A stretch of DNA of 58,447 nt from an uncultured Candidatus Saccharibacteria bacterium (GTDB lineage Bacteria > Patescibacteriota > Minisyncoccia > Phycocordibacterales > UBA5272): contig CAYUDN010000003.1 of assembly GCA_964443675.1 (NCBI GenBank), positions 1-58,447 on the forward strand, in the 5' to 3' direction. The position numbers and the translations under genes were made by a program. Below the pieces are notes generated by a model. That model was given only the letters and a program-made list of their open reading frames with translations. It made no database searches and was not told the origin of the DNA. Positions 7,541 to 46,977 of this stretch are shown in pieces (positions within the stretch are counted from its first letter, which is position 1; every line of letters begins with the position of its first letter).

Positions 7541-7597
7541 ATTACGTATCTACAATGACCGTCATTGTATCTTGCTTCACTACTATACTTATCTTCT

Positions 7598-10500
7598 ATG
7601 TCATCTTCTAATAATAATCAACCAAAAGATCTTTCTGTTAATGAGAAAGAATTAGCAACACTTCGTTTCTGGGAAGAGAATGCTGTTTTTGAAAAGTCTC
7701 TCAAGACTCCAGGAGGGGGTACACCAAAAGGAACATTTTCTTTTTATGATGGGCCTCCGTTTGCAACAGGGCTTCCTCATCACGGTTCTCTTATGGCGGG
7801 GACAGTAAAAGATCTCATTCCTCGGTATCACACCATGAAGGGAATGTTAGTGGATCGTAAGTGGGGATGGGATTGTCACGGGCTTCCGATTGAGAATTTG
7901 ATTGAAAAGAAGCTAGGTCTCAAGAGTAAAAAAGACATCGAAGAGTATGGTATCGACAAGTTCAACCATGACGCATATTGTAGTGTGCTTGAGTTCGAAA
8001 CAGAATGGAAGAAGATTATTCCTCGTCTTGGAAGATGGGTTGATATGAGTCACCCGTATAAGACAATGGATGCGACCTATACAGAAAGTATTTGGTGGGC
8101 ATGGAAGACGTTATACGAAAAAGGGTACGCATATGAAGGGAATAAAATGATGCATATTTGTCCTCGTTGTGAGACACCGCTTGCACAATCAGAAGTTGGT
8201 CTTGAGTATACTGATGTAACAGATCTCTCCGTGACTGCTGAATTTGAACTTGTTGACGAACCAGGAACGTACGTACTTGCATGGACAACGACTCCATGGA
8301 CACTTCCTGGCAATACTGCGCTTGCATTACATAAAGAGCACACCTATGTGAAAGTAAAAAGCACTTTTGAAGGAAAGGTGAATTATTTTATTCTTGCAAA
8401 GAGTAAGGTTGAGGAGTACTTTAAAGATAGTGAGTCGGTGGAAGTTATCGAAGAATTCAAAGGCGAGAAGCTTGTCGGATTAACGTATACACCACTTTTC
8501 CCATACTTCGTCACAAAAGAACTTGAACATAAGGAAAATATTTGGAAGATCTGGCATGCGGATTTTATTACCGAAGATGCAGGTACTGGCATTGCGCATG
8601 AAGCACCAGCATTTGGTGATGAAGATATGCAACTTGCAAAACTTCACAACATTCCAGTGATTAAGCATGTGAAGATGGATGGAACTTTTACTGATGAGGT
8701 TACTGATTTTGTAGGACTTAAGGTGAAGAAAGCGGGGGATACACAATCAACAGATGTGGAGATTATTAAGTGGCTTGCGCATAATGGGAAGCTTTTTGAG
8801 AAGCATAAGATTATTCACTCCTATCCACTTTGTTGGAGATGCAAAACACCGCTCCTTAACTATGCTACGTCATCATGGTTCGTAGATGTACCGAAGATGA
8901 AAGCAAAGTTACTCAAAGAAAACAGTCTGATTGGATGGACTCCGGAACATATTCGTGATGGAAGATTTGGTAAGTGGCTAGAAGGTGCTCGTGAGTGGGC
9001 GGTGTCTCGATCGAGATATTGGGGTGCACCACTTCCTGTTTGGAAAAATCACGATGGGTCGAAAGTGTTCGTGGTCGGGTCTCTTAAAGAACTTGCGAAG
9101 TACTCTGTTAAGAAACCAAAGAATACCTATTACGCAATGCGTCACGGTGAGTCAGTTTTTAATACCCTTGACCGACTTGATCGATCAGGGGATCCAACAA
9201 ATGGTCTAACTGAAAAAGGTATCGAACAAGCAAAACTGGCTGCACAGAAAGTGAAGGAATATGGCGTTGACCTTATTATCACTTCACCACTTCTTCGCAC
9301 ACAAGAAACAGCGACAGTCATTAGAAGTGTCACAGATATTCCTATTGTTGTTGACGAACGACTTGCAGAATTTAGCTTTGGGGACTACGAAGGAATGAAG
9401 GCAACAGAGTTTAGGGCTATTAAAAGTATTCATGAACATCTTGAGGAGCGAGTACCACATGGTGAATCTTTTAAAGATGTCGCGCATCGCTTCATGCAGA
9501 CAGTGCTTTCCTGTGAAGAAAAGTATGAAGGCAAAACGATTTTGTTCGTGACTCATGGTTCACTTTCGTATATGGGGGTGCATGAAGCAGAACTTGCAAC
9601 CGATGAAGAGATTATTGGTAAGAAACATAAAGAAGAAGGACTTAACATTTACAATGGCCAAGTACTTCACTTTACTCCTCTCCTTGTGCCACGCGATGAG
9701 ACAGGTGCAGTTAATCTCCATCGCCCTTTTATTGATGAGGTTGTTCTTTCTGTTGACGGGGAGGAGTATCATCGTATTGGTGATGTTTTTGATTGTTGGT
9801 TCGAGTCGGGGTCAATGCCGTTTGCGTCACTTCATGTACCATTTGAGAATAACGATCTTTTCAAGGAACGTTATCCTGCTGACTTTATTGCAGAAGGAAT
9901 GGATCAGACCCGCGGATGGTTCTATTCGCTTATCAACCTTGGTGTTGGACTTTTCGACGGCGCGCCATATAAGCATGTGATATGTACTGGTCTTATTAAT
10001 GCAGCTGATGGTAAGAAGTTAAGTAAAAGTCTTAATAATTACACTGATCCACTACTTCTTGTTGATCGTTACGGAGCCGATGCTTTCCGATATTACCTTA
10101 TGGCATCTCCTGTGGTGAAAGGGGAAGGTGTGAACTTTAGCGATAAAGATCTTGATGAAGTGTATAAAAAGAATATTATGCGACTTGATAATGTGGTCTC
10201 TCTTTATCGAATGGGTGAGGGTTCATATGCACCATCAAGTTCTTCTCCTTTACCACTTGATCGTTGGATGATAAGTCGCGTGCATGAACTTGTTGAAGAA
10301 ACAACAAGAGGGTATGACGCTTATAAGCTTGATGAAGCGACGAAGGGTATCGAAGGAGTGATTGATGATCTTTCGGTATGGTATACAAGAAGGTCTCGTG
10401 ATCGATTAAAAGGACTTACTGGAAAAGATGATGAAGCTTATGCATATGGAACACTTCGCTACGTATTACTTACTCTTGCGAAGGTGATGGCACCAGTGAT

Positions 10501-11059
10501 GCCGTTTATAGCAGAGCGTACATATCAAAGTGTAAAAGGGGAGAAGTTGTCAGTACATCTTGATGCATGGCCAGTAGCAGGGTTCGTGGATAGAGAGCTT
10601 ATACAAGATATGAAGGTAGTTCGAGAACTTGTGTCACTTGGTCTTATGAAGCGTACAGAACACAAGGTTACTGTGAAGCAGCCACTACAGTCAGTTACCT
10701 TTACCTGTCAAGTGAAGAAGGAGCTTGTGCCACTTATTCTTGATGAGCTTAATGTGAAAGAGGTTAAGTGTGATGTTGTCCAACAAGAAGAAGTGGTGCT
10801 TGATATGACAATTACCAAAGAGTTACAACAAGAAGGGGATATGCGTAAGCTTATCCGTGCAGTGCAAGAGTTACGTAAAGAAAAAGGGTTACAGCCAAGT
10901 GACATAATCACGCTTATGATTTCTTCACAAGAAGGTCTCGGTGATATGTCGACACTTCTTGTTGCTTGTAAAGTGGGTGGTGTAGTCGTTGACTCTTCTA
11001 CTGTTGGGACACAGGTAGAATTGTCTTCTTCTGTGGTTACGGTTGCAATAAAGAATTAG
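7598..11059 (+). CDS. ileS: isoleucine--tRNA ligase with an inserted histidine-phosphatase domain
   Basis: Start at ATG 7598. HIGH (PHHGSL), CP1 editing region, KMSKS (KLSKSL). About 200 extra residues with RHGES...THG lie between GSLKELAKYS and NLHRPFIDE. Confidence 0.9.
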   Translation: MSSSNNNQPKDLSVNEKELATLRFWEENAVFEKSLKTPGGGTPKGTFSFYDGPPFATGLPHHGSLMAGTVKDLIPRYHTMKGMLVDRKWGWDCHGLPIENLIEKKLGLKSKKDIEEYGIDKFNHDAYCSVLEFETEWKKIIPRLGRWVDMSHPYKTMDATYTESIWWAWKTLYEKGYAYEGNKMMHICPRCETPLAQSEVGLEYTDVTDLSVTAEFELVDEPGTYVLAWTTTPWTLPGNTALALHKEHTYVKVKSTFEGKVNYFILAKSKVEEYFKDSESVEVIEEFKGEKLVGLTYTPLFPYFVTKELEHKENIWKIWHADFITEDAGTGIAHEAPAFGDEDMQLAKLHNIPVIKHVKMDGTFTDEVTDFVGLKVKKAGDTQSTDVEIIKWLAHNGKLFEKHKIIHSYPLCWRCKTPLLNYATSSWFVDVPKMKAKLLKENSLIGWTPEHIRDGRFGKWLEGAREWAVSRSRYWGAPLPVWKNHDGSKVFVVGSLKELAKYSVKKPKNTYYAMRHGESVFNTLDRLDRSGDPTNGLTEKGIEQAKLAAQKVKEYGVDLIITSPLLRTQETATVIRSVTDIPIVVDERLAEFSFGDYEGMKATEFRAIKSIHEHLEERVPHGESFKDVAHRFMQTVLSCEEKYEGKTILFVTHGSLSYMGVHEAELATDEEIIGKKHKEEGLNIYNGQVLHFTPLLVPRDETGAVNLHRPFIDEVVLSVDGEEYHRIGDVFDCWFESGSMPFASLHVPFENNDLFKERYPADFIAEGMDQTRGWFYSLINLGVGLFDGAPYKHVICTGLINAADGKKLSKSLNNYTDPLLLVDRYGADAFRYYLMASPVVKGEGVNFSDKDLDEVYKKNIMRLDNVVSLYRMGEGSYAPSSSSPLPLDRWMISRVHELVEETTRGYDAYKLDEATKGIEGVIDDLSVWYTRRSRDRLKGLTGKDDEAYAYGTLRYVLLTLAKVMAPVMPFIAERTYQSVKGEKLSVHLDAWPVAGFVDRELIQDMKVVRELVSLGLMKRTEHKVTVKQPLQSVTFTCQVKKELVPLILDELNVKEVKCDVVQQEEVVLDMTITKELQQEGDMRKLIRAVQELRKEKGLQPSDIITLMISSQEGLGDMSTLLVACKVGGVVVDSSTVGTQVELSSSVVTVAIKN

Positions 11060-26267: not shown

Positions 26268-26483
26268 GCGCTTCAATTTCATTTTCCTCGAAAACGTCAG
26301 CCAAAGAGCTGACTTTTTCTTTTATGGAGAAGAATGGATACTCGGTCACAAATCTGCCTCACTTTGTTCGAAGCAGATTCGCGACCCCTATTCTCATCCC
26401 ACGCACATGACGCAGGTCATGTGCTTCTAACTCTCCACTGTATACAAAAGTTCCGAGAAAGAATCTCGGAACTTTTGTATATG

Positions 26484-26569
26484 CGGAAACGGAGGGATTC
26501 GAACCCTCGAAGGCTTTCACCTTACCGCGTTTCGAGTGCGGCGCACTAGACCAACTATGCGACGTTTCC
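26484..26569 (-). tRNA. tRNA-Ser (anticodon CGA), class II with long variable arm
   Basis: Hand-folded cloverleaf: acceptor GGAAACG/CGTTTCC, anticodon loop CU-CGA-AA, variable arm AAGG-TGAAAG-CCTT, T arm GAGGG-TTCGAAT-CCCTC. CCA is not encoded. Confidence 0.8.
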
Positions 26570-27352
26570 AAGTTTTAATTGTAAGATGTTATGATACTTT
26601 GTCAAATGTTTCATATTGTGTGTTCCAATTAATTTCATAAAAGAGATTACCCCTGTATGTGTTCTGATAAGGATCTTATTCTTACTTGTCGAAGTGGAAT
26701 GAATAGCGAGTAGTAGAAGTGAATTTTTAACTTCTTTAAGAAAATCGTCGGAAGCGGAGCTTATAGATATGCAAGGATAGTGATAAGTTTTTTGTTTTAC
26801 AATTTTTTTCTCAAGATATATTGATCCATCAGTATCAAAAAGGCCACGAAGAAAGGCTGATAGAAGTTTTTTCTTCGCTAGGATCCAAAATGGTATTACT
26901 AACCCCTTTTTAAGCTTATTGCCAACAGGTATCCCAAGTTTCGAGAGGTGTTCAGTTATCATTCGTGACGAGATAACAATATCTATTGCTTTTGCTGTGC
27001 GACGTAGCCTCTTTCTGGTTTGTATTTTTAACTTTTTCTCAAGTAGTTCTGTTACAAAATGAGCGTACACCTCATCCTTTTCACTGTTAAGAGTGATAGA
27101 AGATTGGTAATAAGATAAATGTCCATCACCGAAGAAGATACCAACAATTTCTGCTAATTCTTCATCTTTTTTAGGGAAAGGGGTAATAGTTAAAGTTTTA
27201 AAATTTGAACTTTTTTGGATTTTTTGCGTAAGTAAAGAATTTCTCCCTCCCTTTGCTCTTCCTTCTTTTGTTCCAGGGTTTCCATATAACTCTATTCGAC
27301 GCTTTCCACCAATCTTTGCAGCTATTATTTTTTTGGTATGTGTCACCAGCAT
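26555..27352 (-). CDS. free-standing LAGLIDADG family endonuclease (two-motif, single-chain)
   Basis: Two LAGLIDADG motifs (IVGIFFGDGHL and LRGLFDTDGSIY). The 3' end overlaps the tRNA-Ser 5' end by 15 nt. Confidence 0.75.
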   Translation of the reverse strand: MLVTHTKKIIAAKIGGKRRIELYGNPGTKEGRAKGGRNSLLTQKIQKSSNFKTLTITPFPKKDEELAEIVGIFFGDGHLSYYQSSITLNSEKDEVYAHFVTELLEKKLKIQTRKRLRRTAKAIDIVISSRMITEHLSKLGIPVGNKLKKGLVIPFWILAKKKLLSAFLRGLFDTDGSIYLEKKIVKQKTYHYPCISISSASDDFLKEVKNSLLLLAIHSTSTSKNKILIRTHTGVISFMKLIGTHNMKHLTKYHNILQLKLGNVA

Positions 27353-33180: not shown

Positions 33181-33223
33181 ATATGAGATAACAGACCGCT
33201 TCGCTACAGATAACAGAAAAGAG

Positions 33224-33264
33224 AATAAAGAAGCGGGGCGCCTACGGCGCCCCGCTTCTTTATT
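33224..33264. terminator. bidirectional terminator (perfect 19-bp stem)
   Basis: AATAAAGAAGCGGGGCGCC-TAC-GGCGCCCCGCTTCTTTATT. Confidence 0.8.
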
Positions 33265-33296
33265 CATACAATGACTATTATTGTATTGCAAACAAA

Positions 33297-33439
33297 GTTC
33301 GTCTACCGGGACCAGGAACTTGAGGACCAGTCGTGTATACTGAATCGTATTTTAGGTTCGTTCAGTCTTTGTATTCAAAGTGCGCCCACCTGGACCAGGA
33401 ACCTGTGGACCAGTCGTGTATACTAAGACGTATTTTTAG
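33297..33439 (-). repeat. two tandem tRNA 3'-half-like repeats (H3a 33297-33356, H3b 33380-33439)
   Basis: The two copies are about 48/57 identical to each other. Both are homologous to the 3' half of the adjacent tRNA-Ile (GGACCAG-CGTGTATA...). The tandem period is ~83 bp (33297, 33380, 33463). Confidence 0.8.
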
Positions 33440-33463
33440 TTCATTCGCAGATTATGCTCAAGG

Positions 33464-33536
33464 TGCATCCACCAGGACTCGAACCTGGGACCAGACGTGT
33501 ATAAGACGTCCGCTCTACCAACTGAGCTATGGATGC
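33464..33536 (-). tRNA. tRNA-Ile (anticodon UAU)
   Basis: Hand-folded 73-nt cloverleaf with all four stems fully Watson-Crick: GCATCCA/TGGATGC, GCTC/GAGC, GACGT/ACGTC, CCAGG/CCTGG. Anticodon loop CT-TAT-AC, discriminator A. Confidence 0.85.
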
Positions 33537-33566
33537 ACCTTTTTCATAATCTACTCATTTCTAAAA

Positions 33567-33817
33567 ATAAGACGACGGCTCTACCAACCGAAGCTTAGGC
33601 GCACTTTATTTATAAATCCATTCGTTGTCAAAAATACTAATCGTAGCAAATGTTCATTCGTTTCAAAATGATACAAGAGTACTTGTCTCATTTTTCCCTC
33701 ATTCCATTTGATAAGACGACGGCTCTACCAACCGAAGCTTAGGCGCACTTAATCCATTTTTTCTTCTTTTGTTTTGATAAGACGTTCCTTTTGCTAACTA
33801 AGCCAGTTTTGCACACC
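33567..33817 (-). repeat. three tRNA 5'-half-like repeats (H5a 33567-33604, H5b 33711-33748, H5c 33777-33817)
   Basis: H5a and H5b are identical (GTGCGCCTAAGCTTCGGTTGGTAGAGCCGTCGTCTTAT on the minus strand). H5c is degenerate. All three stop at ...CGTCTTAT, the anticodon position. Confidence 0.8.
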
Positions 33818-33913
33818 AGGTGCAAAACTGTAGTCTACTATACCAAAAAAAGAGCTAAGTATAAAGTTCTTTGCTTGGTAACCTTTTTGTTTGCTATGCT
33901 GAGAAGATATAGT

Positions 33914-34873
33914 ATGAAAACAGTTGCTATTCTTTATGGGGGTCCGTCAAGTGAGTATGAAGTTTCGGTGCGTTCTGGGGTGGATGTGATTGAATATATT
34001 GATCGAGAGTGTTATCGGGTGCTACCGGCACACATCACGAAGACCTGTGTCTACGAAATTGAAGGAAAAGAATACCAAGAAGATGATGCGCTTACTTTTC
34101 TTTCTCAACATGCTGATCTGGTATTTCCAGTGCTTCACGGTAAGTATGGGGAAGGGGGAATATTGCAAGCCAAGCTCGAACATCGCAGTGTTCCTTTTGT
34201 TGGTTCATCAAGCGAAGTATCTGCGTGTGCAATGGATAAACATAAAGCAAGTGAAGTATTTGTGCTTGGTGGTCTTACTGTGCCACAAGAAAAAGTGATC
34301 ACGAAGGAGGAGTATACTCATTCTTTACGGTATCCAATTATTTGTAAACCGATAGACGAGGGGTCGAGTGTTGGTCTTTCGATTATTGCGTCCGAGAGAG
34401 AATTTTTGGATGCACAAGAGAGTCTTTTTGCTTCGTATGACACACTTCTTGCGCAAGAGTATATTGCTGGACGAGAGTTCACTTGTGCGGTGATTCAAAA
34501 GGGAAGTGAAGTAGTTCCTCTTCTTGCAAGTGAAGTGATTCTAACAAATAGTACACTTCTTGATTATGACGCTAAATACACAAAAGGTGGTTGTCAAAAA
34601 GTAACCCCTGCAGAAGTTGATGAGGTGCTTATGCAAAGAATACAAGACACTGCGATCAGATGTTATAAGCTTCTTGGTTGTAGGTCTCTTTCACGAACGG
34701 ATATGATTCTTGCTCACGATACATTGTATGTATTAGAAACAAATACCATACCAGGAATGACAAAGACATCCTTCCTTCCGGCACAAGCACAAGCTTCCGG
34801 TATCTCGATGAAAGAACTTATTACCTTTTTGATAGAGTCGGTACCTGTTGGGAAAGTAAACAGTAAAAAGTAA
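33914..34873 (+). CDS. ddl: D-alanine--D-alanine ligase
   Basis: Start at ATG 33914 (KTVAILYGGPSSEYEVSVRSG), followed by an ATP-grasp core and C-terminal LETNTIPGMT. Confidence 0.9.
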   Translation: MKTVAILYGGPSSEYEVSVRSGVDVIEYIDRECYRVLPAHITKTCVYEIEGKEYQEDDALTFLSQHADLVFPVLHGKYGEGGILQAKLEHRSVPFVGSSSEVSACAMDKHKASEVFVLGGLTVPQEKVITKEEYTHSLRYPIICKPIDEGSSVGLSIIASEREFLDAQESLFASYDTLLAQEYIAGREFTCAVIQKGSEVVPLLASEVILTNSTLLDYDAKYTKGGCQKVTPAEVDEVLMQRIQDTAIRCYKLLGCRSLSRTDMILAHDTLYVLETNTIPGMTKTSFLPAQAQASGISMKELITFLIESVPVGKVNSKK

Positions 34874-34966: not shown

Positions 34967-37606
34967 TTACTCCATATGCACCTGTTCTTTTTTCTTAATT
35001 GTTTCGAGAAGGGTGGGGTGATTCTCTAATCGCTCATCTTCTTTGATAAGTGCATGTGCTTCTTGTTGTGCAACTTCGACTAATTTTGGATTTTTGATTG
35101 CCTCCATTGCAAGGTCACTTATTCCCCACTGCTTGCCTTCTGTTAATGTGCCGATGCCACGTGTGAGCATATCTTGTTCTGCGAGCTCAAAACCATTTTT
35201 TGCTTTGACTAATCCCTTCAAGCGAGTGAAGGTTGTTTCACCAAAGCTTTCTGTGAAGAGATAACAGTAGGATTGGTGTGAAGATCTTCCGACACGGCCA
35301 CGCAACTGGTGGAGTTGCGCAAGACCAAATCTATCCGCATGTTCAATAATAATAACAGTAGCATTAGGAACATTCACACCGACTTCAACCACAGAGGTAG
35401 CAACTAATATGTCTGACTTTTTATCCAAAAAATCTTGCATTACTTCTTCCTTCTCTTCTTTTTTCATTTTGCTGTGAAGAATGTCGACAACGAATTCAGG
35501 GAAGACTTCTTCACTTAGACGCTTCGCTTCTTCTTTGACACTTTTTAGGATTCGCTTCTGTCTCTCCTCTTCATCTTGTTCATCAATGCGAGGGCAGATG
35601 ACATATACCTGTCTTCCTGCTTGCAGTTCTTGGCGTATTGCTTCGTACATTTCGTGACGTTTCGAAGCCTTCACAACCTCCGTGATAATTTTTTTGCGTT
35701 CTTTCGGTACTTCGTCAATTACCGTAAGATCAAGATCACCAAAAATAGTAAGTGCAAGAGTTCGAGGGATAGGGGTGGCAGTCATCGACAACAAGTGAGG
35801 TAACTTGTTCGCAGACCTCGCAGACTGAGGCAGACCTCGCAGACCTATCCGTGCGGTTTCGTACACGACACGTTTTATTTCTATGTCACTACCACCAAAG
35901 TTAACAAGAAAACCAACGGAGTAATCACTTCCTTGTAAATACGTAAGAAGTTGTCTCTCTTCTATGTTTCCAAGAAACTTAATTGACTTGAATTCAATAA
36001 TAACTTTTTCGTCAATGATAAAATCAGGTTGGTAGACACCAACTTTTTTATTGTGGTATACGACAGGTAGTTGTCTCTCCCTTGTGTAAGGAATAGAACG
36101 CTTTTGTAACTCAATTTCAAATGCATTCTGGTACACAAGTTCTTTATGCCCGAGTCCTAGTTGTTTCTTTAGATCAAAACAAATTCCTCGAAGTGTGTAC
36201 GATAATTCTTTATACAAAAACTCATCTGTGTTGTCTGCGTGGTCTGCATTAAGTCTGCGTGGTCTGCGAGAGAGCTCTGCTCTCTGTTTGACGCCGAAGC
36301 GGTGTTGTTCGTCGATGATAATGAGTGCGAGATCTTTGAATGCGACAGACTTCTGGATGAGTGCGTGTGTTCCGATCACGATGGAGATACGACCATCAGT
36401 CAGCCATTTGATGAGCTGCGCGCGTGAGATCGAAGTAGGCTCATCACTTGTTTTGCTCGGGTACTTCTTGCAACCACTTCCTGTTAAGAGACCGATCTCG
36501 ATACCGGTACCCTTGAAGTATTCGATGAAGCTTTCGAAGTGTTGCTTGGCAAGAATTTCTGTTGGTGCCATGTAGGCAACCTGAAGTGGTGTGCCGTGCT
36601 CTTCTTCGCTATTAGAAATAGTTGCATATGCTACCACCGCAGCAACGAACGTCTTGCCACTTCCTACATCACCCTCAAGAAGCCTTCCCATCGGCTTATG
36701 TGCTTTCATGTCATCAAGAATAGTTGCGATCGCATTCTTCTGGGCATTCGTTGGGGTAAAAGGGAAGCGCTTCATGAAGTCATTTAATGACTTTTTGGTG
36801 ATAGTAACTTCGTGTGCAACAGTATGACTGAGCTCTGCGCGCTCTTTCTCTTGTTGTAGTTTGAGATAAAAAATTTCTTCGAAGGCGAAGCGTTTGCGCG
36901 CCGCGATAGTGAGCGCTTCGTTCTTAGGGAAGTGAAGATAAAGAAGCGCGTCTTTGAGGTACGGAAGATGAAGTCGCTTAAGAGTTGCTTCTGGTATTGG
37001 ATCAATGATGTGATCGAGGACTCCTTTTGCAACAGCTTTTTTGATAAGCGTGTAGAGATACAGCGAAGAGACACCTTTGGTCTCGGGGTAGATCGGAGTG
37101 AGGAATGAAGTATCGTTCGAAGCTCCTTTTTCTTCTTTCTGTTCTTGTGATGTTTCGACGTGAGCAAGAAGTGTCTCTTGTGCAGCGGGGATCTCACCCG
37201 TTACTTTTTCGATGCTTGGATTAGAAAGAAGGAAACCTTTGCTGTCTTCTTGTACCACTCCCATGACTTTTACTTTGGTGCCTTCTTGATACATTTTGCC
37301 AATGTAGGCTTGGTTGAACCATATCGCCCGAATGAAGCCGGTGTTGTCTACGATACGTGCCTCGGTAAGTGGTATGTGTCCGCGGAAACTTCTTCGTACT
37401 ACTACTTTTTCCATCACACCATAAATGGTGACAGACTGACCTTTGGTGAGTGACCCGGTGCCTGCGATTTCACGAAGGTCCGCATAGCGAAAAGGGAAGT
37501 GAAAGAGAAGATCTTCTATGGTGGTAATAGAAAGACGATGAAGACCAGCTGCGTGATCTTTGTCTATTTTTGCAAGAGTAGTAATGTTCTCATGAAGAGG
37601 GGACAT
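34967..37606 (-). CDS. recG: ATP-dependent DNA helicase RecG carrying an in-frame 153-codon insertion
   Basis: 879 aa: N-terminal wedge/OB region, motif I GDVGSGKT, motif II DEQH, motif III MTATPIPRT, motif VI QLRGRVGRS. Confidence 0.9.
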   Translation of the reverse strand: MSPLHENITTLAKIDKDHAAGLHRLSITTIEDLLFHFPFRYADLREIAGTGSLTKGQSVTIYGVMEKVVVRRSFRGHIPLTEARIVDNTGFIRAIWFNQAYIGKMYQEGTKVKVMGVVQEDSKGFLLSNPSIEKVTGEIPAAQETLLAHVETSQEQKEEKGASNDTSFLTPIYPETKGVSSLYLYTLIKKAVAKGVLDHIIDPIPEATLKRLHLPYLKDALLYLHFPKNEALTIAARKRFAFEEIFYLKLQQEKERAELSHTVAHEVTITKKSLNDFMKRFPFTPTNAQKNAIATILDDMKAHKPMGRLLEGDVGSGKTFVAAVVAYATISNSEEEHGTPLQVAYMAPTEILAKQHFESFIEYFKGTGIEIGLLTGSGCKKYPSKTSDEPTSISRAQLIKWLTDGRISIVIGTHALIQKSVAFKDLALIIIDEQHRFGVKQRAELSRRPRRLNADHADNTDEFLYKELSYTLRGICFDLKKQLGLGHKELVYQNAFEIELQKRSIPYTRERQLPVVYHNKKVGVYQPDFIIDEKVIIEFKSIKFLGNIEERQLLTYLQGSDYSVGFLVNFGGSDIEIKRVVYETARIGLRGLPQSARSANKLPHLLSMTATPIPRTLALTIFGDLDLTVIDEVPKERKKIITEVVKASKRHEMYEAIRQELQAGRQVYVICPRIDEQDEEERQKRILKSVKEEAKRLSEEVFPEFVVDILHSKMKKEEKEEVMQDFLDKKSDILVATSVVEVGVNVPNATVIIIEHADRFGLAQLHQLRGRVGRSSHQSYCYLFTESFGETTFTRLKGLVKAKNGFELAEQDMLTRGIGTLTEGKQWGISDLAMEAIKNPKLVEVAQQEAHALIKEDERLENHPTLLETIKKKEQVHME
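35810..36268 (-). mobile_element. TIR-bounded GxxExxY (PD-(D/E)XK) module inserted in-frame in recG
   Basis: 36-bp inverted repeats at 35810-35845 and 36233-36268 (31/36 identical with one gap), each made of four CGCAGAC heptads. The interior encodes GHKELVY...DFIIDEKVIIEFK...LLTYL...GFLVNFG. 459 bp = 153 codons with no stop. Confidence 0.75.
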
Positions 37607-45550: not shown

Positions 45551-45602
45551 ATCACCACGAAAGAGACCCTTATGAAGTTCCGTCTTCATTGGGGGCTTTT
45601 TT
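45551..45602 (+). ncRNA. candidate small RNA A, convergent with NYN gene 1
   Basis: TTGACA 45517-45522, 16 nt, TATACT 45539-45544. A hairpin (ATGAAG/CTTCAT plus a CCC/GGG extension) is followed by T6, which abuts the stop codon of the NYN gene. Confidence 0.4.
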
Positions 45603-46092
45603 ATTGTAGGTTATTTTTCTGATCGTTGATATAAAATATTTTTGCTGCTGTCCTCTTTAGTAAGATGGAGCATTTCTTTTCTCTTGCTGGGGAGATGACA
45701 CCAAGTAGTCTTTTTTCTGAAGCAACGAAAGCAACAAGTGGAGCATAATCACCGTCACTCGAAACAAGTAGCATCTTATCGTATGTGTGAGTGTAGAAAT
45801 CTTGTGTAGCCTTAAGAACAAGGTCAGCATCGCAATTGCCTTTTGGTTTGCCGTTGTTATCGTATACCACTTCTTTAAAAATCAAAACATAACCACACTC
45901 TTGTAGATGGCTATACAGCTTGCCATACTTAGGGACATTTCCTATAAAAAGGTATGCAGTAGTGATGTTGAACTTTTCTGTAAGCCAGACCCTTAGTTTC
46001 TTGTAGTCAAGCTCCCAACTAAGACTGTTCATTCCTTGGTGCAAGTTGGCACCATCTATGTATGCATAGTTGTTTTCTTTACGCGATTTCAT
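45601..46092 (-). CDS. NYN domain (LabA/DUF88-like) predicted RNase, paralog 1
   Basis: Start set at ATG 46092 (MKSRKENNYAYIDGANL...LLVSSDGDYAPLV). Confidence 0.75.
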   Translation of the reverse strand: MKSRKENNYAYIDGANLHQGMNSLSWELDYKKLRVWLTEKFNITTAYLFIGNVPKYGKLYSHLQECGYVLIFKEVVYDNNGKPKGNCDADLVLKATQDFYTHTYDKMLLVSSDGDYAPLVAFVASEKRLLGVISPAREKKCSILLKRTAAKIFYINDQKNNLQ

Positions 46093-46224
46093 AACAACAA
46101 GTGTATCATGAAGGGAGTAGAGCACAGATGACAGATAACAGACCGCTTCGCTTACAGATGACAGATCGCTACGCTGACAGAATACAGACGACAGACCGCT
46201 CCTCTGTATTTATCTGTACTCTGT
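46069..46224 (-). repeat. 156-bp cassette, copy 1 (155/156 identical to 46822-46977)
   Basis: Covers the first 8 codons of the NYN gene, the upstream 5' region, and an ACAGA-rich element. Confidence 0.9.
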
Positions 46225-46271
46225 TGTCTATCCGCGATTGACATTTTTTTTTATCTCTTTATACTGTGTAC

Positions 46272-46329
46272 ATATCCACACGAAAAGGGGTCCAAAAGGT
46301 GAAGGTGCCTAAGGCACCCTTTTCTTTTT
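46272..46329 (+). ncRNA. candidate small RNA B, convergent with and overlapping the 3' end of NYN gene 2
   Basis: TTGACA 46238-46243, 16 nt, TATACT 46260-46265. Hairpin GGTGCC-TAA-GGCACC plus a T-run. The 5' part (ATCCACACGAAAAGGGG) resembles RNA A (ATCACCACGAAAGAGA). Confidence 0.4.
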
Positions 46330-46845
46330 GTCATTTTTCATTGCTATTTTTTCTTGTACTGCACTATCATCAAGATAGGCGAAATATTTGTTGGAGAGTT
46401 CGTTATAAAGAGAAGATTTAAATTTTTTATTAGGGAACAATATTTTCCGGAATCTTTCTTTCTTCACTAAGTAGTCAACAACCTTTTTATAGTCACCGTC
46501 TCCAGAAACAAGAAGAACTTTGTTGAAATTTTCGCTGTTATCAATTATGTTCTTCATTATTTCAAAGACGATATCAGTATCCACGTTCCCTTTCTTCTGT
46601 GATTGTAGTGCAGTGTTATGCTCTTTAAACAAGACTATAAAACCAGCTTTTTGTAGTTTTGTGTAAAGATTTTGTTGGTCTTCGTCGATATATCCAAAAA
46701 AGTAGTACGCTTCTACGACGTGATATTTGTCTCGCAGGTAAGTTCGAAGTCGATAATGATCTGTTTTCCAATTATTGATAGTAGTACCAAGGTGTAGGTT
46801 TTGTCCATCGATGAAGGCGAGGTTGTTTTCTTTACGCGATTTCAT
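46309..46845 (-). CDS. NYN domain (LabA/DUF88-like) predicted RNase, paralog 2
   Basis: Start set at ATG 46845 (MKSRKENNLAFIDGQNL...LLVSGDGDYKKVV). Confidence 0.75.
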   Translation of the reverse strand: MKSRKENNLAFIDGQNLHLGTTINNWKTDHYRLRTYLRDKYHVVEAYYFFGYIDEDQQNLYTKLQKAGFIVLFKEHNTALQSQKKGNVDTDIVFEIMKNIIDNSENFNKVLLVSGDGDYKKVVDYLVKKERFRKILFPNKKFKSSLYNELSNKYFAYLDDSAVQEKIAMKNDKKKRVP

Positions 46846-46977
46846 AACAACAAGTGTATCATGAAGGGAGCAGAGCACAGATGACAGATAACAGACCGCT
46901 TCGCTTACAGATGACAGATCGCTACGCTGACAGAATACAGACGACAGACCGCTCCTCTGTATTTATCTGTACTCTGT
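46822..46977 (-). repeat. 156-bp cassette, copy 2
   Basis: Differs from 46069-46224 by a single T/C. Confidence 0.9.

Follow-up and report, generated by a model that had tools for sequence, protein, structure and literature searches.

The window analysed here, a stretch of 58,447 nt, comes from the genome of a member of the Patescibacteria (CPR). In the intergenic region between ftsH and ddl it carries an array on the minus strand that consists of three 5′ half-like segments, one intact tRNA-Ile(UAU) gene and two 3′ half-like segments. The array is a single unit that runs from a promoter-like site (TTTATA-17-TATAGT with TG; 33837–33865), upstream of the outermost 5′ half, to a terminator-like 20-bp GC-rich hairpin followed by a T-rich run (33223–33265). 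The promoter-like site matches the TTTTTGGTATAGT motif, which lies ~13 nt 5′ of the uninterrupted tRNA-Ile(UAU) genes of relatives (motifs of this type were seen at the naive loci L016, L021, L053, L060 and L068), and at nested loci the promoter still stands ahead of the outermost 5′ half. Since Logan assemblies reproduce both flanks (the ddl side in L001 and L002, the ftsH side in L255), the array is not an assembly artefact. On the opposite strand, the terminator-like hairpin at 33223–33265 also follows ftsH.

Read along the minus strand, the array opens with H5c (33777–33817), the outermost and most decayed 5′ half, which agrees with the tRNA 5′ half at 25 of 41 positions, ends in CGTCTTAT and overlaps a perfect 11-bp hairpin (33804–33830). 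A 30-nt CAAA-type trailer, T_c (33747–33776), related to the trailers of L105 and L260, follows and abuts H5b (33711–33746), which is dead, represents the 5′ half of a tRNA-Ile of type B (GCGCCTA...) and ends at the anticodon TAT. Next to it lies a 77-nt tRNA-less hairpin insert (33710–33634; CAAATGG...CATTTG-CTACGATTAG-TAT), which was missing from an earlier note on this DNA. Then come T_B (33603–33633), the 31-nt trailer arm of the B-layer cassette, which in strain L003 stands directly before an intact tRNA B, and H5a (33567–33602), the 5′ half of a split tRNA B. The 30-nt trailer arm of the innermost cassette, T_A (33537–33566), forms together with the preceding anticodon TAT the 5′ strand of a stalk and leads into the intact tRNA-Ile(UAU) of type A (33464–33536; acceptor GCATCCA/TGGATGC), which ARAGORN called as tRNA-Ile(TAT), which scored 71.7 bits against the Rfam tRNA model and which is presumably functional. 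The 3′ strand of the stalk is the 41-nt leader arm L_A (33423–33463), ending in a conserved unpaired tail, CGTCTTAG. Beyond it, H3b (33381–33422), the 3′ half of the split tRNA B, begins with a repeated TAT and carries a variant T arm as well as the strands that match H5a (anticodon-stem ACGAC, acceptor TGGGCGC). The last elements are L_B (33340–33380), the 41-nt leader arm of the B-layer cassette and decayed partner of T_B, and H3a (33298–33339), the outermost 3′ half, with a variant T arm and the acceptor strand TAGACGA, which may be compared with that of the L096 tRNA (GCGTCTA/TAGACGC).

Most of the geometry drawn in the earlier note was reproduced, all its segments being found in the order and at the coordinates it gave, on the minus strand. 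The identity of H5a and H5b holds over 38 of 38 positions as drawn there and over 36 of 36 in the true tRNA register. The 5′ halves do end at CGTCTTAT, of which four co-oriented copies (three halves and the tRNA) lie within 284 nt, and the whole window holds 6 copies against 1.08 expected. H3a and H3b agree at 49 of 60 positions over the coordinates of the note, and the ~83-bp series said to include the tRNA 3′ half was recovered as 83-nt units, 76% identical, with spacings of 83 and 81 nt in register; GTATACACGACTGGTCC is present in exactly two copies against 0.05 expected (≤3 mismatches). The 9-nt pairing between trailer and leader, TATTTTTAG with CTAAAAATA, is real. Two descriptions needed amendment. 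The acceptor strands of types A and B differ as claimed, but the register had been drawn 2 nt too far out: in the true register, the acceptor of split tRNA B reads GCGCCTA/TGGGCGC and includes one G-U pair, and the extra GT/AC is part of the flanking stalk. Likewise, the T arms of the 3′ halves, described as degenerate, are indeed non-canonical, but they do not reflect random decay, the same variant (..TGGTCC N5-6 TTCCTGGTCCAGG) being found in other genomes.

Comparison with relatives, which the earlier note had suggested, revealed the state of the locus before the innermost insertion. In strain L003, whose Ddl is 92% identical to that of the window and whose upstream 317 nt are 99% identical, an intact tRNA B occupies exactly the position of H5a. 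Relative to L003, the window has 147 additional nt after ...CGTCTTAT, with the complete tRNA A placed between a trailer of 30 nt and a leader of 41 nt that is followed by a repeated TAT, and this insert contains no ORF. By this comparison H5a and H3b are the former intact tRNA B, split after the anticodon TAT, as had been proposed when the two were taken for halves of one second tRNA-Ile. In L118 (and L219), the order is 5′ half, 30-nt trailer, identical full tRNA, 41-nt leader and 3′ half, and the L118 halves are identical to the inner tRNA at 36 of 36 and 40 of 40 positions, so that L118, judged by its sequence, is a fresh insertion event. The source of L118 is the 775-kb contig JBAZJW010000001.1, and that of L086, described below, the 79.8-kb contig CAZEDG010000002.1.

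The nested layout recurs in many Patescibacteria. We counted it in at least 18 related loci, which have the synteny tmRNA-smpB-ftsH-tRNA-Ile-recG in common and whose FtsH proteins are 73–86% identical to that of the window. The window shares both its layout and its junctions (CGTCTTAT/TTTT... and ...AAAATACGTCTTAG/TATACACGAC, the slash marking the junction) with L025, L032, L064, L075/L094, L079, L083, L086 and L101, and further with L103, L105, L122, L125, L138, L256 and L260, while other clades have related but distinct versions (L035, L115, L039). When the right-junction pattern TACGNNTTAGTATACAC was sought in metagenomes, 3 of 120 among the matches listed were real (L125, L138, L219), the rest being mostly chance. 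The FtsH 90% cluster had no member besides the window's own protein, and no exact match was obtained for FtsH when it was started from either of two upstream start codons. In L086, the arms T_mid/L_mid enclose the B halves and T_in/L_in enclose tRNA A, each arm being complementary to its own partner. L086 is the closest genome to the window by FtsH (85%) and already has A in B, but the much closer strain L003 does not, which points to horizontal exchange of alleles; such exchange, as read from these sequences, makes the order of events less distinct. The same anticodon position is used by at least three junction families, which imply several independent insertions. The distribution could largely be due to vertical descent and allelic exchange after a few ancient events.

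By pairing, the trailer and leader arms prolong the acceptor stem as a long stalk that has a tandem GA/GA internal loop. Covariation was evident, with 12 of 26 pairs changed on both sides; 85.8% of the stalk cells were paired, compared with 31–49% when the partner was slid, and none of 500 shuffles reached the stalk score. G-U and A-C mismatches, counted as a means of telling selection on RNA from selection on single-stranded DNA, were about equally frequent in the stalk (10 and 8) and favoured neither. For the transcript of the whole array, folding predicted nested helices (z = −4.4). The hairpin-only insert has the architecture of the cassette stalk but no tRNA at its tip. It was matched by covariance model R1 at 33637–33713 (31 bits, E = 3.8e-4), lay outside the training set and was the only significant match in the window; homologues are present in L003, L101 and L256, and outer copies also carry hairpin inserts in their D and T loops. 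Away from tRNA-Ile loci, no matches to R1 were found in the 58-kb window (filters off) or in 646 kb of related loci (default filters), and BLAST with other insert families returned no dispersed copies. L035 has TA-flanked terminal inverted repeats on its hairpin (CAAAAGG...CCTTTTG) as well as on its tRNA cassette (TGGTTTGAG...CTTAAACCCA). The window type has TAT or TA on both sides, with the right inverted repeat 8 nt inside the end, and the TAT belongs to the target anyway; a simple TA/TAT duplication model does not explain the conserved 8-nt tail that separates the stalk from the repeated TAT. By eye, no motif in the stalk or in the D-loop inserts fitted a hammerhead core, a box C/D or k-turn, a loop E or a bulge-helix-bulge.

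By Pfam, the ~55 ORFs of the 58-kb window include no integrase, transposase or recombinase, integrase genes being what the earlier note had proposed to look for, and no genes lie between the halves in ~18 related nested loci. The cassette was not found on viral contigs, which yielded only two plain tRNA-Ile(TAT) genes (L243, L251) with neither stalk nor halves. Rfam, at gathering score for the window and 18 loci and at E ≤ 10 for the array, returned only tRNA and tmRNA and no intron or ribozyme family. Several specific models were rejected. The promoter TTGACA-17-TAAAGT of some trailers cannot make the tRNA, because its −10 element abuts tRNA position +1. Target-primed reverse transcription as a simple model meets the microhomology CGTCTTA with the left flank and not with the right one, and a tyrosine-recombinase crossover in a CGTCTTA core would put the extra GTA at the wrong junction. 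A bacterial group I intron has a catalytic core, recognisable by covariance models, of ~200 nt or longer, whereas the non-tRNA part of the insert is ~74 nt and matched no such family.

Given these observations, we consider it likely that the array consists of dead tRNA-Ile(UAU) genes that became nested as non-coding replacement cassettes inserted one after another, site-specifically, into the resident gene. On sequence comparison, we regard as established that the halves were once intact genes, that there is an insert with exact boundaries, that the nesting comes with matched arms and recurs, and that no recombinase is nearby. A resident tRNA-Ile(UAU) gene would have stood directly behind its promoter, between ftsH and ddl, and would have been split in the DNA at the anticodon TAT by a ~147-bp non-coding cassette in which a trailer arm of ~30 nt and a leader arm of ~41 nt enclose a complete tRNA-Ile(UAU), with TAT (or TA) repeated at both junctions. 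Having no promoter of its own, the cassette would be transcribed from the resident one, and its tRNA would take over the decoding of AUA. Correct folding of the new tRNA amid competing half copies is presumably secured by the stalk, and the old split gene would decay. Because the new tRNA is itself a fresh target, the process could be repeated. In the window, cassette B would have entered an older gene (H5c...H3a), cassette A would then have entered tRNA B (H5a...H3b), and a tRNA-less hairpin of the cassette-stalk family would have inserted into the dead copy H5b. The outermost pieces, on this sequence-based ordering, are the oldest.

As to how the cassette inserts, we would rank homology-guided capture after DNA uptake first. 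The dead halves flanking a donor cassette would provide homology arms, 30-40 nt long, for any intact tRNA-Ile(UAU) gene, and this would account for the strict choice of site, the odd but frozen junction and the lesions in common. A trans-acting TA-specific transposase would come second and an unrecognised site-specific recombinase third. Active transposition is unproven, since no enzyme or mobile intermediate and no copy outside tRNA-Ile loci were found. A bolder version of the replacement cassette, which we regard as rather doubtful, would make it an enzyme-free selfish gene of tRNA and stalk alone, in which the old halves serve as arms and, once DNA has been taken up, host RecA inserts the cassette at the anticodon loop of any intact tRNA-Ile(UAU) gene. 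If so, each insertion would regenerate new arms and leave the host depending on the incoming tRNA, the A and B acceptor types alternating from layer to layer would be the record of an essential, single-copy patescibacterial tRNA having been replaced horizontally time after time, and in the conserved stalk one would have a new RNA element for tRNA processing or insulation.

Other histories have to be weighed against the replacement cassette. Integrase-bearing islands or prophages might have entered the anticodon loop repeatedly and left classical att scars when their bodies were later deleted. As far as PMC9897764 and PMC3293823 describe them, tRNA genes, and anticodon loops notably, are classic integration sites, with displaced partial copies as a known signature. 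Here, too, the partial copies are direct repeats co-oriented with the tRNA, 5′ ones upstream and 3′ ones downstream, and plain 3′ fragments downstream of the tRNA at other CPR loci (L114, L033) look scar-like. At ~18 loci, however, only trailer, complete tRNA and leader (~147 bp) lie between the halves, both arms abut the tRNA ends and pair with covariation, and the insert, 147 bp with no ORF, is not of kb scale with a recombinase; the 58 kb hold no integrase and the viral contigs no cassette. Moreover, tRNA A differs from the B halves in both acceptor and both anticodon-stem strands, and the insert supplies a complete tRNA; as both acceptor strands differ together from the outer halves, the inner tRNA A is no hybrid of host and element. 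We hold att scars to be improbable. Among the readings of the earlier note, that of nested remnants of elements aimed at the anticodon loop nonetheless comes nearest to the comparative data: the halves mark insertions at the anticodon TAT, nested so that the oldest lie outermost, but the insert is not an integrase-bearing island later lost. It is only slightly less improbable that one ancient insertion was followed by local rearrangement alone, unequal crossing-over and gene conversion between the tRNA and its flanking halves multiplying the units of 5′ half plus trailer and of leader plus 3′ half. The identity of H5a and H5b, the same variant T arm in H3a and H3b and the regular unit spacings (66, 83 and 81 nt) would fit such a history, and exchange between direct repeats is expected and probably contributes. 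Yet the acceptor types differ by layer (A, B and the TAGACGA type), the arms differ as well (23 of 32 positions alike between T_A and T_B, 26 of 41 between L_A and L_B) with each trailer fitting its own leader, the window differs from L003 by insertion of a different tRNA (A) and not by duplication of B, and a single insertion does not account for at least three junction families at one anticodon position. A decayed tandem duplication as the origin, also raised before, is not supported either, every layer having its own matched trailer and leader and its own acceptor type.

A function at the RNA level, whether as an intron-containing or split pre-tRNA of the Nanoarchaeum kind or through half transcripts acting as decoys or regulators, appears very unlikely to us. 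The helix of trailer and leader includes the anticodon, as does the anticodon-intron pairing of spliced pre-tRNAs, the stalk covaries, the outer halves of L118 are perfect, inserts in D and T loops recall multi-intron archaeal tRNAs, and the recurrent variant T arm suggests some constraint. Against this, the outer copies have lost U8, A14 and the canonical T arm, H5a joined to H3b fails ARAGORN at default settings, and no additional Rfam tRNA, ribozyme or intron match appeared at E ≤ 10, for which reasons we also set aside the split or processed functional tRNA of the earlier note. The junction forms a 2 × 13-nt asymmetric loop and, by eye, no bulge-helix-bulge. An intact copy is always present, the outermost layers have decayed past recognition (H5c), none of the loci examined has the insert in its sole tRNA-Ile(UAU) copy, and a tRNA inside the "intron" would make the outer tRNA redundant.

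Among known systems, bacterial MITEs (Correia and RUP type; IS630/mariner-like) show TA target duplication and many dispersed copies. The insert described here resembles them as a small non-coding hairpin with inverted-repeat ends and TA on both sides, most cleanly in L035. Unlike MITEs, it was found only at the tRNA-Ile(UAU) anticodon position in the 58-kb window and the related loci searched, it has a tRNA as cargo, and the right end of the window type has 8 extra nt beyond the inverted repeat. Prophages, ICEs and islands that use tRNA genes as integration sites leave partial copies of them behind (Reiter 1989 and Williams 2002, both cited in PMC9897764). In both cases a tRNA gene is the target (here its anticodon loop), sequence brought by the insert preserves tRNA function, displaced partial copies stay behind as direct repeats, and repeated events give rise to arrays; our insert differs in being ~147 bp with no ORF or integrase, in bringing a whole tRNA rather than the displaced part, and in that the new gene ends up nested between a 5′ half and a 3′ half, both of which remain. 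In Caldiarchaeum subterraneum, tRNA-Thr(GGU) is disrupted by a 1.8-kb recombinase-encoding element, and the population heterogeneity at that locus was interpreted as mobile-element integration (PMC3293823). That case parallels ours in the heterogeneity at one tRNA locus and in an old 5′ fragment adjoining the replacement tRNA gene, but the element is archaeal, 1.8 kb long, recombinase-encoding and multi-copy, whereas the cassette is non-coding, was found at this locus only and forms several nested layers. PMC10714607 mentions the split tRNA genes of Nanoarchaeum equitans and the tri-split tRNAs of Caldivirga. The Nanoarchaeum halves likewise have a complementary trailer and leader, which would draw them together, but they are the sole gene, lie at separate loci with their own promoters and are cut at a bulge-helix-bulge and ligated, while here an intact tRNA lies between degenerate halves in one transcription unit of a bacterium. 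Mobile archaeal tRNA introns of Thermoproteales (Fujishima 2010, via PMC10714607), as far as that source describes them, are also short structured inserts in D, anticodon and T loops that move between tRNA genes; they are spliced at a bulge-helix-bulge and their exons are functional, unlike the interrupted copies here, which are degenerate and in which the motif is absent by eye.

Both H5a and H5b lack U8 and have the changes C13>T and A14>C, and the lesions of H5b are also present in L086 and L101. Across different genomes, the dead 5′ halves have TA-AGCTTYRK-TTGG in common and the 3′ halves the T-arm variant TTCCTGGTCCAGG. Going by these alignments, lesions common to dead halves of different genomes are unexplained by simple neutral decay, and their recurrence may point to selection, to co-transfer or to gene conversion. 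As a secondary process, dead copies probably do undergo gene conversion or unequal exchange with one another.

If the replacement-cassette reading is true, a large group of uncultured bacteria has repeatedly had its essential tRNA for AUA decoding replaced by a ~150-bp non-coding cassette that both destroys and substitutes for the resident gene, which would make it the bacterial counterpart of the disrupted archaeal tRNA genes and, to our knowledge, the smallest "addictive" insertion targeting a tRNA gene. Our searches of open-access papers turned up neither such a cassette nor any case of one tRNA gene nested inside another. The layers would offer a readable stratigraphy of past events, and annotation pipelines should expect tRNA half pseudogenes near tRNA-Ile(UAU) in Patescibacteria. 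Assemblies tend to break at such arrays, and L001, L002, L003 and L255 each end inside one.

The window carries housekeeping genes from a Patescibacteria (CPR) bacterium, among them nusG, rplK, thyA, several aminoacyl-tRNA synthetases, ssb, infC, smpB, tmRNA, ftsH, ddl, recG and secDF, and the beginning of a 16S gene. The array lies on the minus strand in the 733-nt gap between ftsH (end 33180) and ddl (start 33914), with a promoter-like TTTATA-17-TATAGT site (33865-33837, minus) on one side and a terminator-like 20-bp hairpin (33265-33223, minus) on the other. All elements listed in the earlier note were found, namely the intact tRNA-Ile(TAT) (tRNA A, 33536-33464, minus), the 5' half-like pieces H5a, H5b and H5c and the 3' half-like pieces H3a and H3b; a 77-nt hairpin-only insert (33710-33634) had been missed. 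H5a and H5b are identical in sequence, both without U8 and with the changes C13>T and A14>C, and H5c is a 5' half that has decayed much further. Each of them ends in CGTCTTAT, a motif sixfold enriched in the window and clustered at the array. H3b and H3a agree at 49/60 positions, both lying in units of 83 nt whose register is that of the tRNA's 3' half. The acceptor stems had to be corrected to GCATCCA/TGGATGC for tRNA A and GCGCCTA/TGGGCGC for the halves (type B). Both flanks were reproduced by independent Logan assemblies, which break within the repeats, and the array is real and non-random. A perfect 11-bp hairpin (CAGTTTTGCAC/GTGCAAAACTG; 33804-33830, minus) comes just after the point where transcription is predicted to start, and part of it lies in the decayed acceptor region of H5c.

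A Logan contig of the close strain L003 shares H5c, H5b, the hairpin and the trailer arm T_B with the window (Ddl 92% identical; upstream 317 nt 99% identical). In place of H5a, this strain carries a canonical and uninterrupted tRNA B, GCGCCTA TA GCTC AGTTGGTA GAGC C GTCGT CTTATAC ACGAC TGGTC CCTGG TTCGAGT CCAGG... Since tRNA B is intact there, H5a and H3b in the window are the two parts of a tRNA B gene, as the earlier note had argued from covariation. The gene is interrupted directly after the anticodon TAT by 147 nt. The insert begins with the trailer T_A (30 nt), continues with the whole of tRNA A (73 nt) and the leader L_A (41 nt), whose last nucleotides are CGTCTTAG, and closes with a second TAT. 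The split-tRNA reading of the same pieces was not borne out: ARAGORN at default thresholds called no tRNA from joined H5a and H3b, and no further tRNA was matched in Rfam with the cut-off relaxed to E<=10. A Nanoarchaeum-type split tRNA is not supported for the halves. The view of the halves as dead remains of resident genes that were split, and the definition of the inserted unit, are both better supported than the account of serial cassette insertion as a whole, which we consider rather likely. The ddl genes of the window (33914-34873) and L003 (377-1336) form a mosaic of 81% to 99% DNA identity per 120-nt window, and the array upstream, adjoining ddl, is 99% identical; this points to homologous exchange being frequent in the population.

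A scan for TATACACGWCTGGTCC with one genome per species returned at least 119 loci, and most among the matches listed are Patescibacteria, where tRNA-Ile(UAU) is common. One clade has the common synteny tmRNA-smpB-ftsH-tRNA-Ile-recG, with FtsH 73-86% identical to that of the window, and its tRNA-Ile locus occurs in three states. Naive loci have a TGnTATAGT promoter ~13 nt upstream of the tRNA (L016, L021, L022, L031, L053, L060, L063, L068), others carry the tRNA on a stalk of paired arms without recognisable halves (L034, L038, L074, L085, L106), and the rest show nested halves (the window, L003, L025, L032, L064, L075/L094, L079, L083, L086, L101, L103, L105, L118 = L219, L122, L125, L138, L256, L260). 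The cleanest is L118, in which a perfect 5' half, trailer, identical full tRNA, leader and perfect 3' half follow in that order. Junctions are constant across the nested loci (left ...CGTCTTAT|TTTT..., right ...AAAATACGTCTTAG|TATACACGAC...), and in other clades (L035, L115, L039) the junctions at this anticodon position belong to different families. In L035, a hairpin and a tRNA cassette each have terminal inverted repeats bordered by TA.

Nesting in layers is seen in L086, where a truncated outer 5' half, T_mid, a B 5' half, T_in and tRNA A are followed by L_in, the B 3' half, L_mid and the outer 3' half, T_mid pairing with L_mid and T_in with L_in. Acceptor type and arms differ between layers, which argues for successive insertions and not for amplification of one unit. 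Since the promoter is always found upstream of the outermost 5' half, the original resident is the layer furthest out.

Trailer and leader share a common fold. At its base is a 9-bp stem that opens with the anticodon TAT and closes with ATA; this is followed by a 2 x 3 internal loop, two base pairs, a tandem GA/GA loop and then another stem, and the acceptor stem is lengthened by 5-6 bp. The basal stem, TATTTTTAG/CTAAAAATA, is the trailer/leader complementarity noticed earlier. Among ten cassettes, both sides changed in 12/26 pairs, a covariation reached by 0/500 shuffles, and 85.8% of stalk cells are paired, compared with 31-49% with slid partners. For the full transcript, folding prediction gives the nested helices (z = -4.4). 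Elsewhere in the window, the covariance model of the stalk matched the hairpin-only element only, and in 646 kb of related loci it matched only tRNA-Ile arrays, several outside the training set; no dispersed copies were found in this DNA, either with the model or with BLAST of the other insert families.

The loci show insertion at the DNA level, between the promoter and terminator of the resident and at the anticodon, with TAT/TA on either side, of a tRNA with its two arms and nothing else. An RNA-level reading of the array, to which we give a low probability, is kept alive by four features: one variant T arm (TGGTCC N5-6 TTCCTGGTCCAGG) common to the outer 3' halves of many genomes, the same D-arm lesions in the dead B-type 5' halves of the window, L086 and L101, the 8-nt tail CGTCTTAG, unpaired yet nearly invariant, and other small structured inserts in dead copies, in the D loop (L025, L035, L069, L096, L115, L125, L138, L256) and the T loop (L019, L021, L060, L069, L096, L122, L138, L256). 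Stalk mismatches are about as often G-U as A-C (10 vs 8), so the selected hairpin may be RNA or single-stranded DNA alike.

How the DNA insertion came about is the least supported component of the account. We rank homology-guided capture first of three candidates: dead halves flanking a donor cassette have a core of 29-32 nt that is identical in any intact tRNA-Ile(UAU) gene, and DNA uptake followed by recombination would insert the cassette precisely at the anticodon and generate new arms. Such capture would explain why the site specificity is strict and why the odd junction is frozen, and likewise the lesions common to different genomes and the mosaic relationships, seen in ddl and in the tRNA A cassette inside tRNA B, which occurs in L086 and L256 and is absent in the much closer L003. 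A primary insertion process of some kind, beyond allele exchange, exists, as the several independent families of junctions show. Among the candidates, a TA-specific transposase acting in trans ranks second and some site-specific recombinase third; no integrase, transposase or recombinase was found in the 58 kb, and no cassette on viral contigs.

The nearest known kind is integrative elements that target tRNA genes and leave partial copies (PMC9897764), with a related archaeal example in Caldiarchaeum (PMC3293823). The nested scars proposed earlier are supported in modified form. In contrast to such elements, the present unit has no recombinase, is not kb-scale and makes no hybrid tRNA. It resembles MITEs in size and inverted repeats but differs in copy number and target range, and it gave no match to known families of introns or ribozymes. 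We found no description of this cassette or of such a nested tRNA arrangement in open-access papers.

The D-loop inserts of dead outer tRNA-Ile copies (L125 8474-8522; L096 3771-3818; L035 492-599; L115 5708-5816) include one family with the motif CGAAGATGTC...CAGCAGG and another of ~108 nt bordered by a TA duplication (GG[TA]...[TA]GAGC); no further copies turned up in the rest of the fetched DNA. T-loop inserts (L138 1515-1550; L122 455-489; L019 4487-4585) comprise a 36-nt family (TTCGTATTTATGGCCAAGCCATGAATTTGCTAATTC) and one of ~100-130 nt. Many loci otherwise classed as naive have a heavily invaded dead copy directly downstream of the functional tRNA.

Elsewhere in the window, a LAGLIDADG_3 homing-endonuclease-like ORF (265 aa; 26555-27352, minus) has its last 15 nt within the 5' end of tRNA-Ser(CGA) (26483-26569, minus), which has no half-tRNA repeats around it. 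This tRNA is followed by its 18-bp hairpin (26441-26481) and a GGGATGAGAATAGGGGTCGCGAA-containing stretch (26300-26440, minus) that has no Rfam match and by eye is like the ~130-nt inserts (GACGAGAARGCC...CGAGGGGCGG) in dead tRNA-Ile copies at other Patescibacteria loci. In the RecG helicase (34967-37606, minus) the two helicase lobes are separated by an inserted PD-(D/E)XK nuclease domain (PDDEXK_3, aa 467-580); among fetched relatives, full-length alignment (aa 4-879) was obtained with L101 (76% identity), L125 and L086, and for most others the alignment stopped at aa ~448 or began only at aa ~580. In an IleRS-like class I aminoacyl-tRNA synthetase with DUF5915 (7565-11059, plus), a histidine-phosphatase domain (His_Phos_1, aa 523-668) is inserted in the catalytic domain. 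Two neighbouring NYN-domain (predicted RNase) genes (45601-46878, minus) adjoin a locally GC-rich stretch (44-46 kb, GC 0.51).
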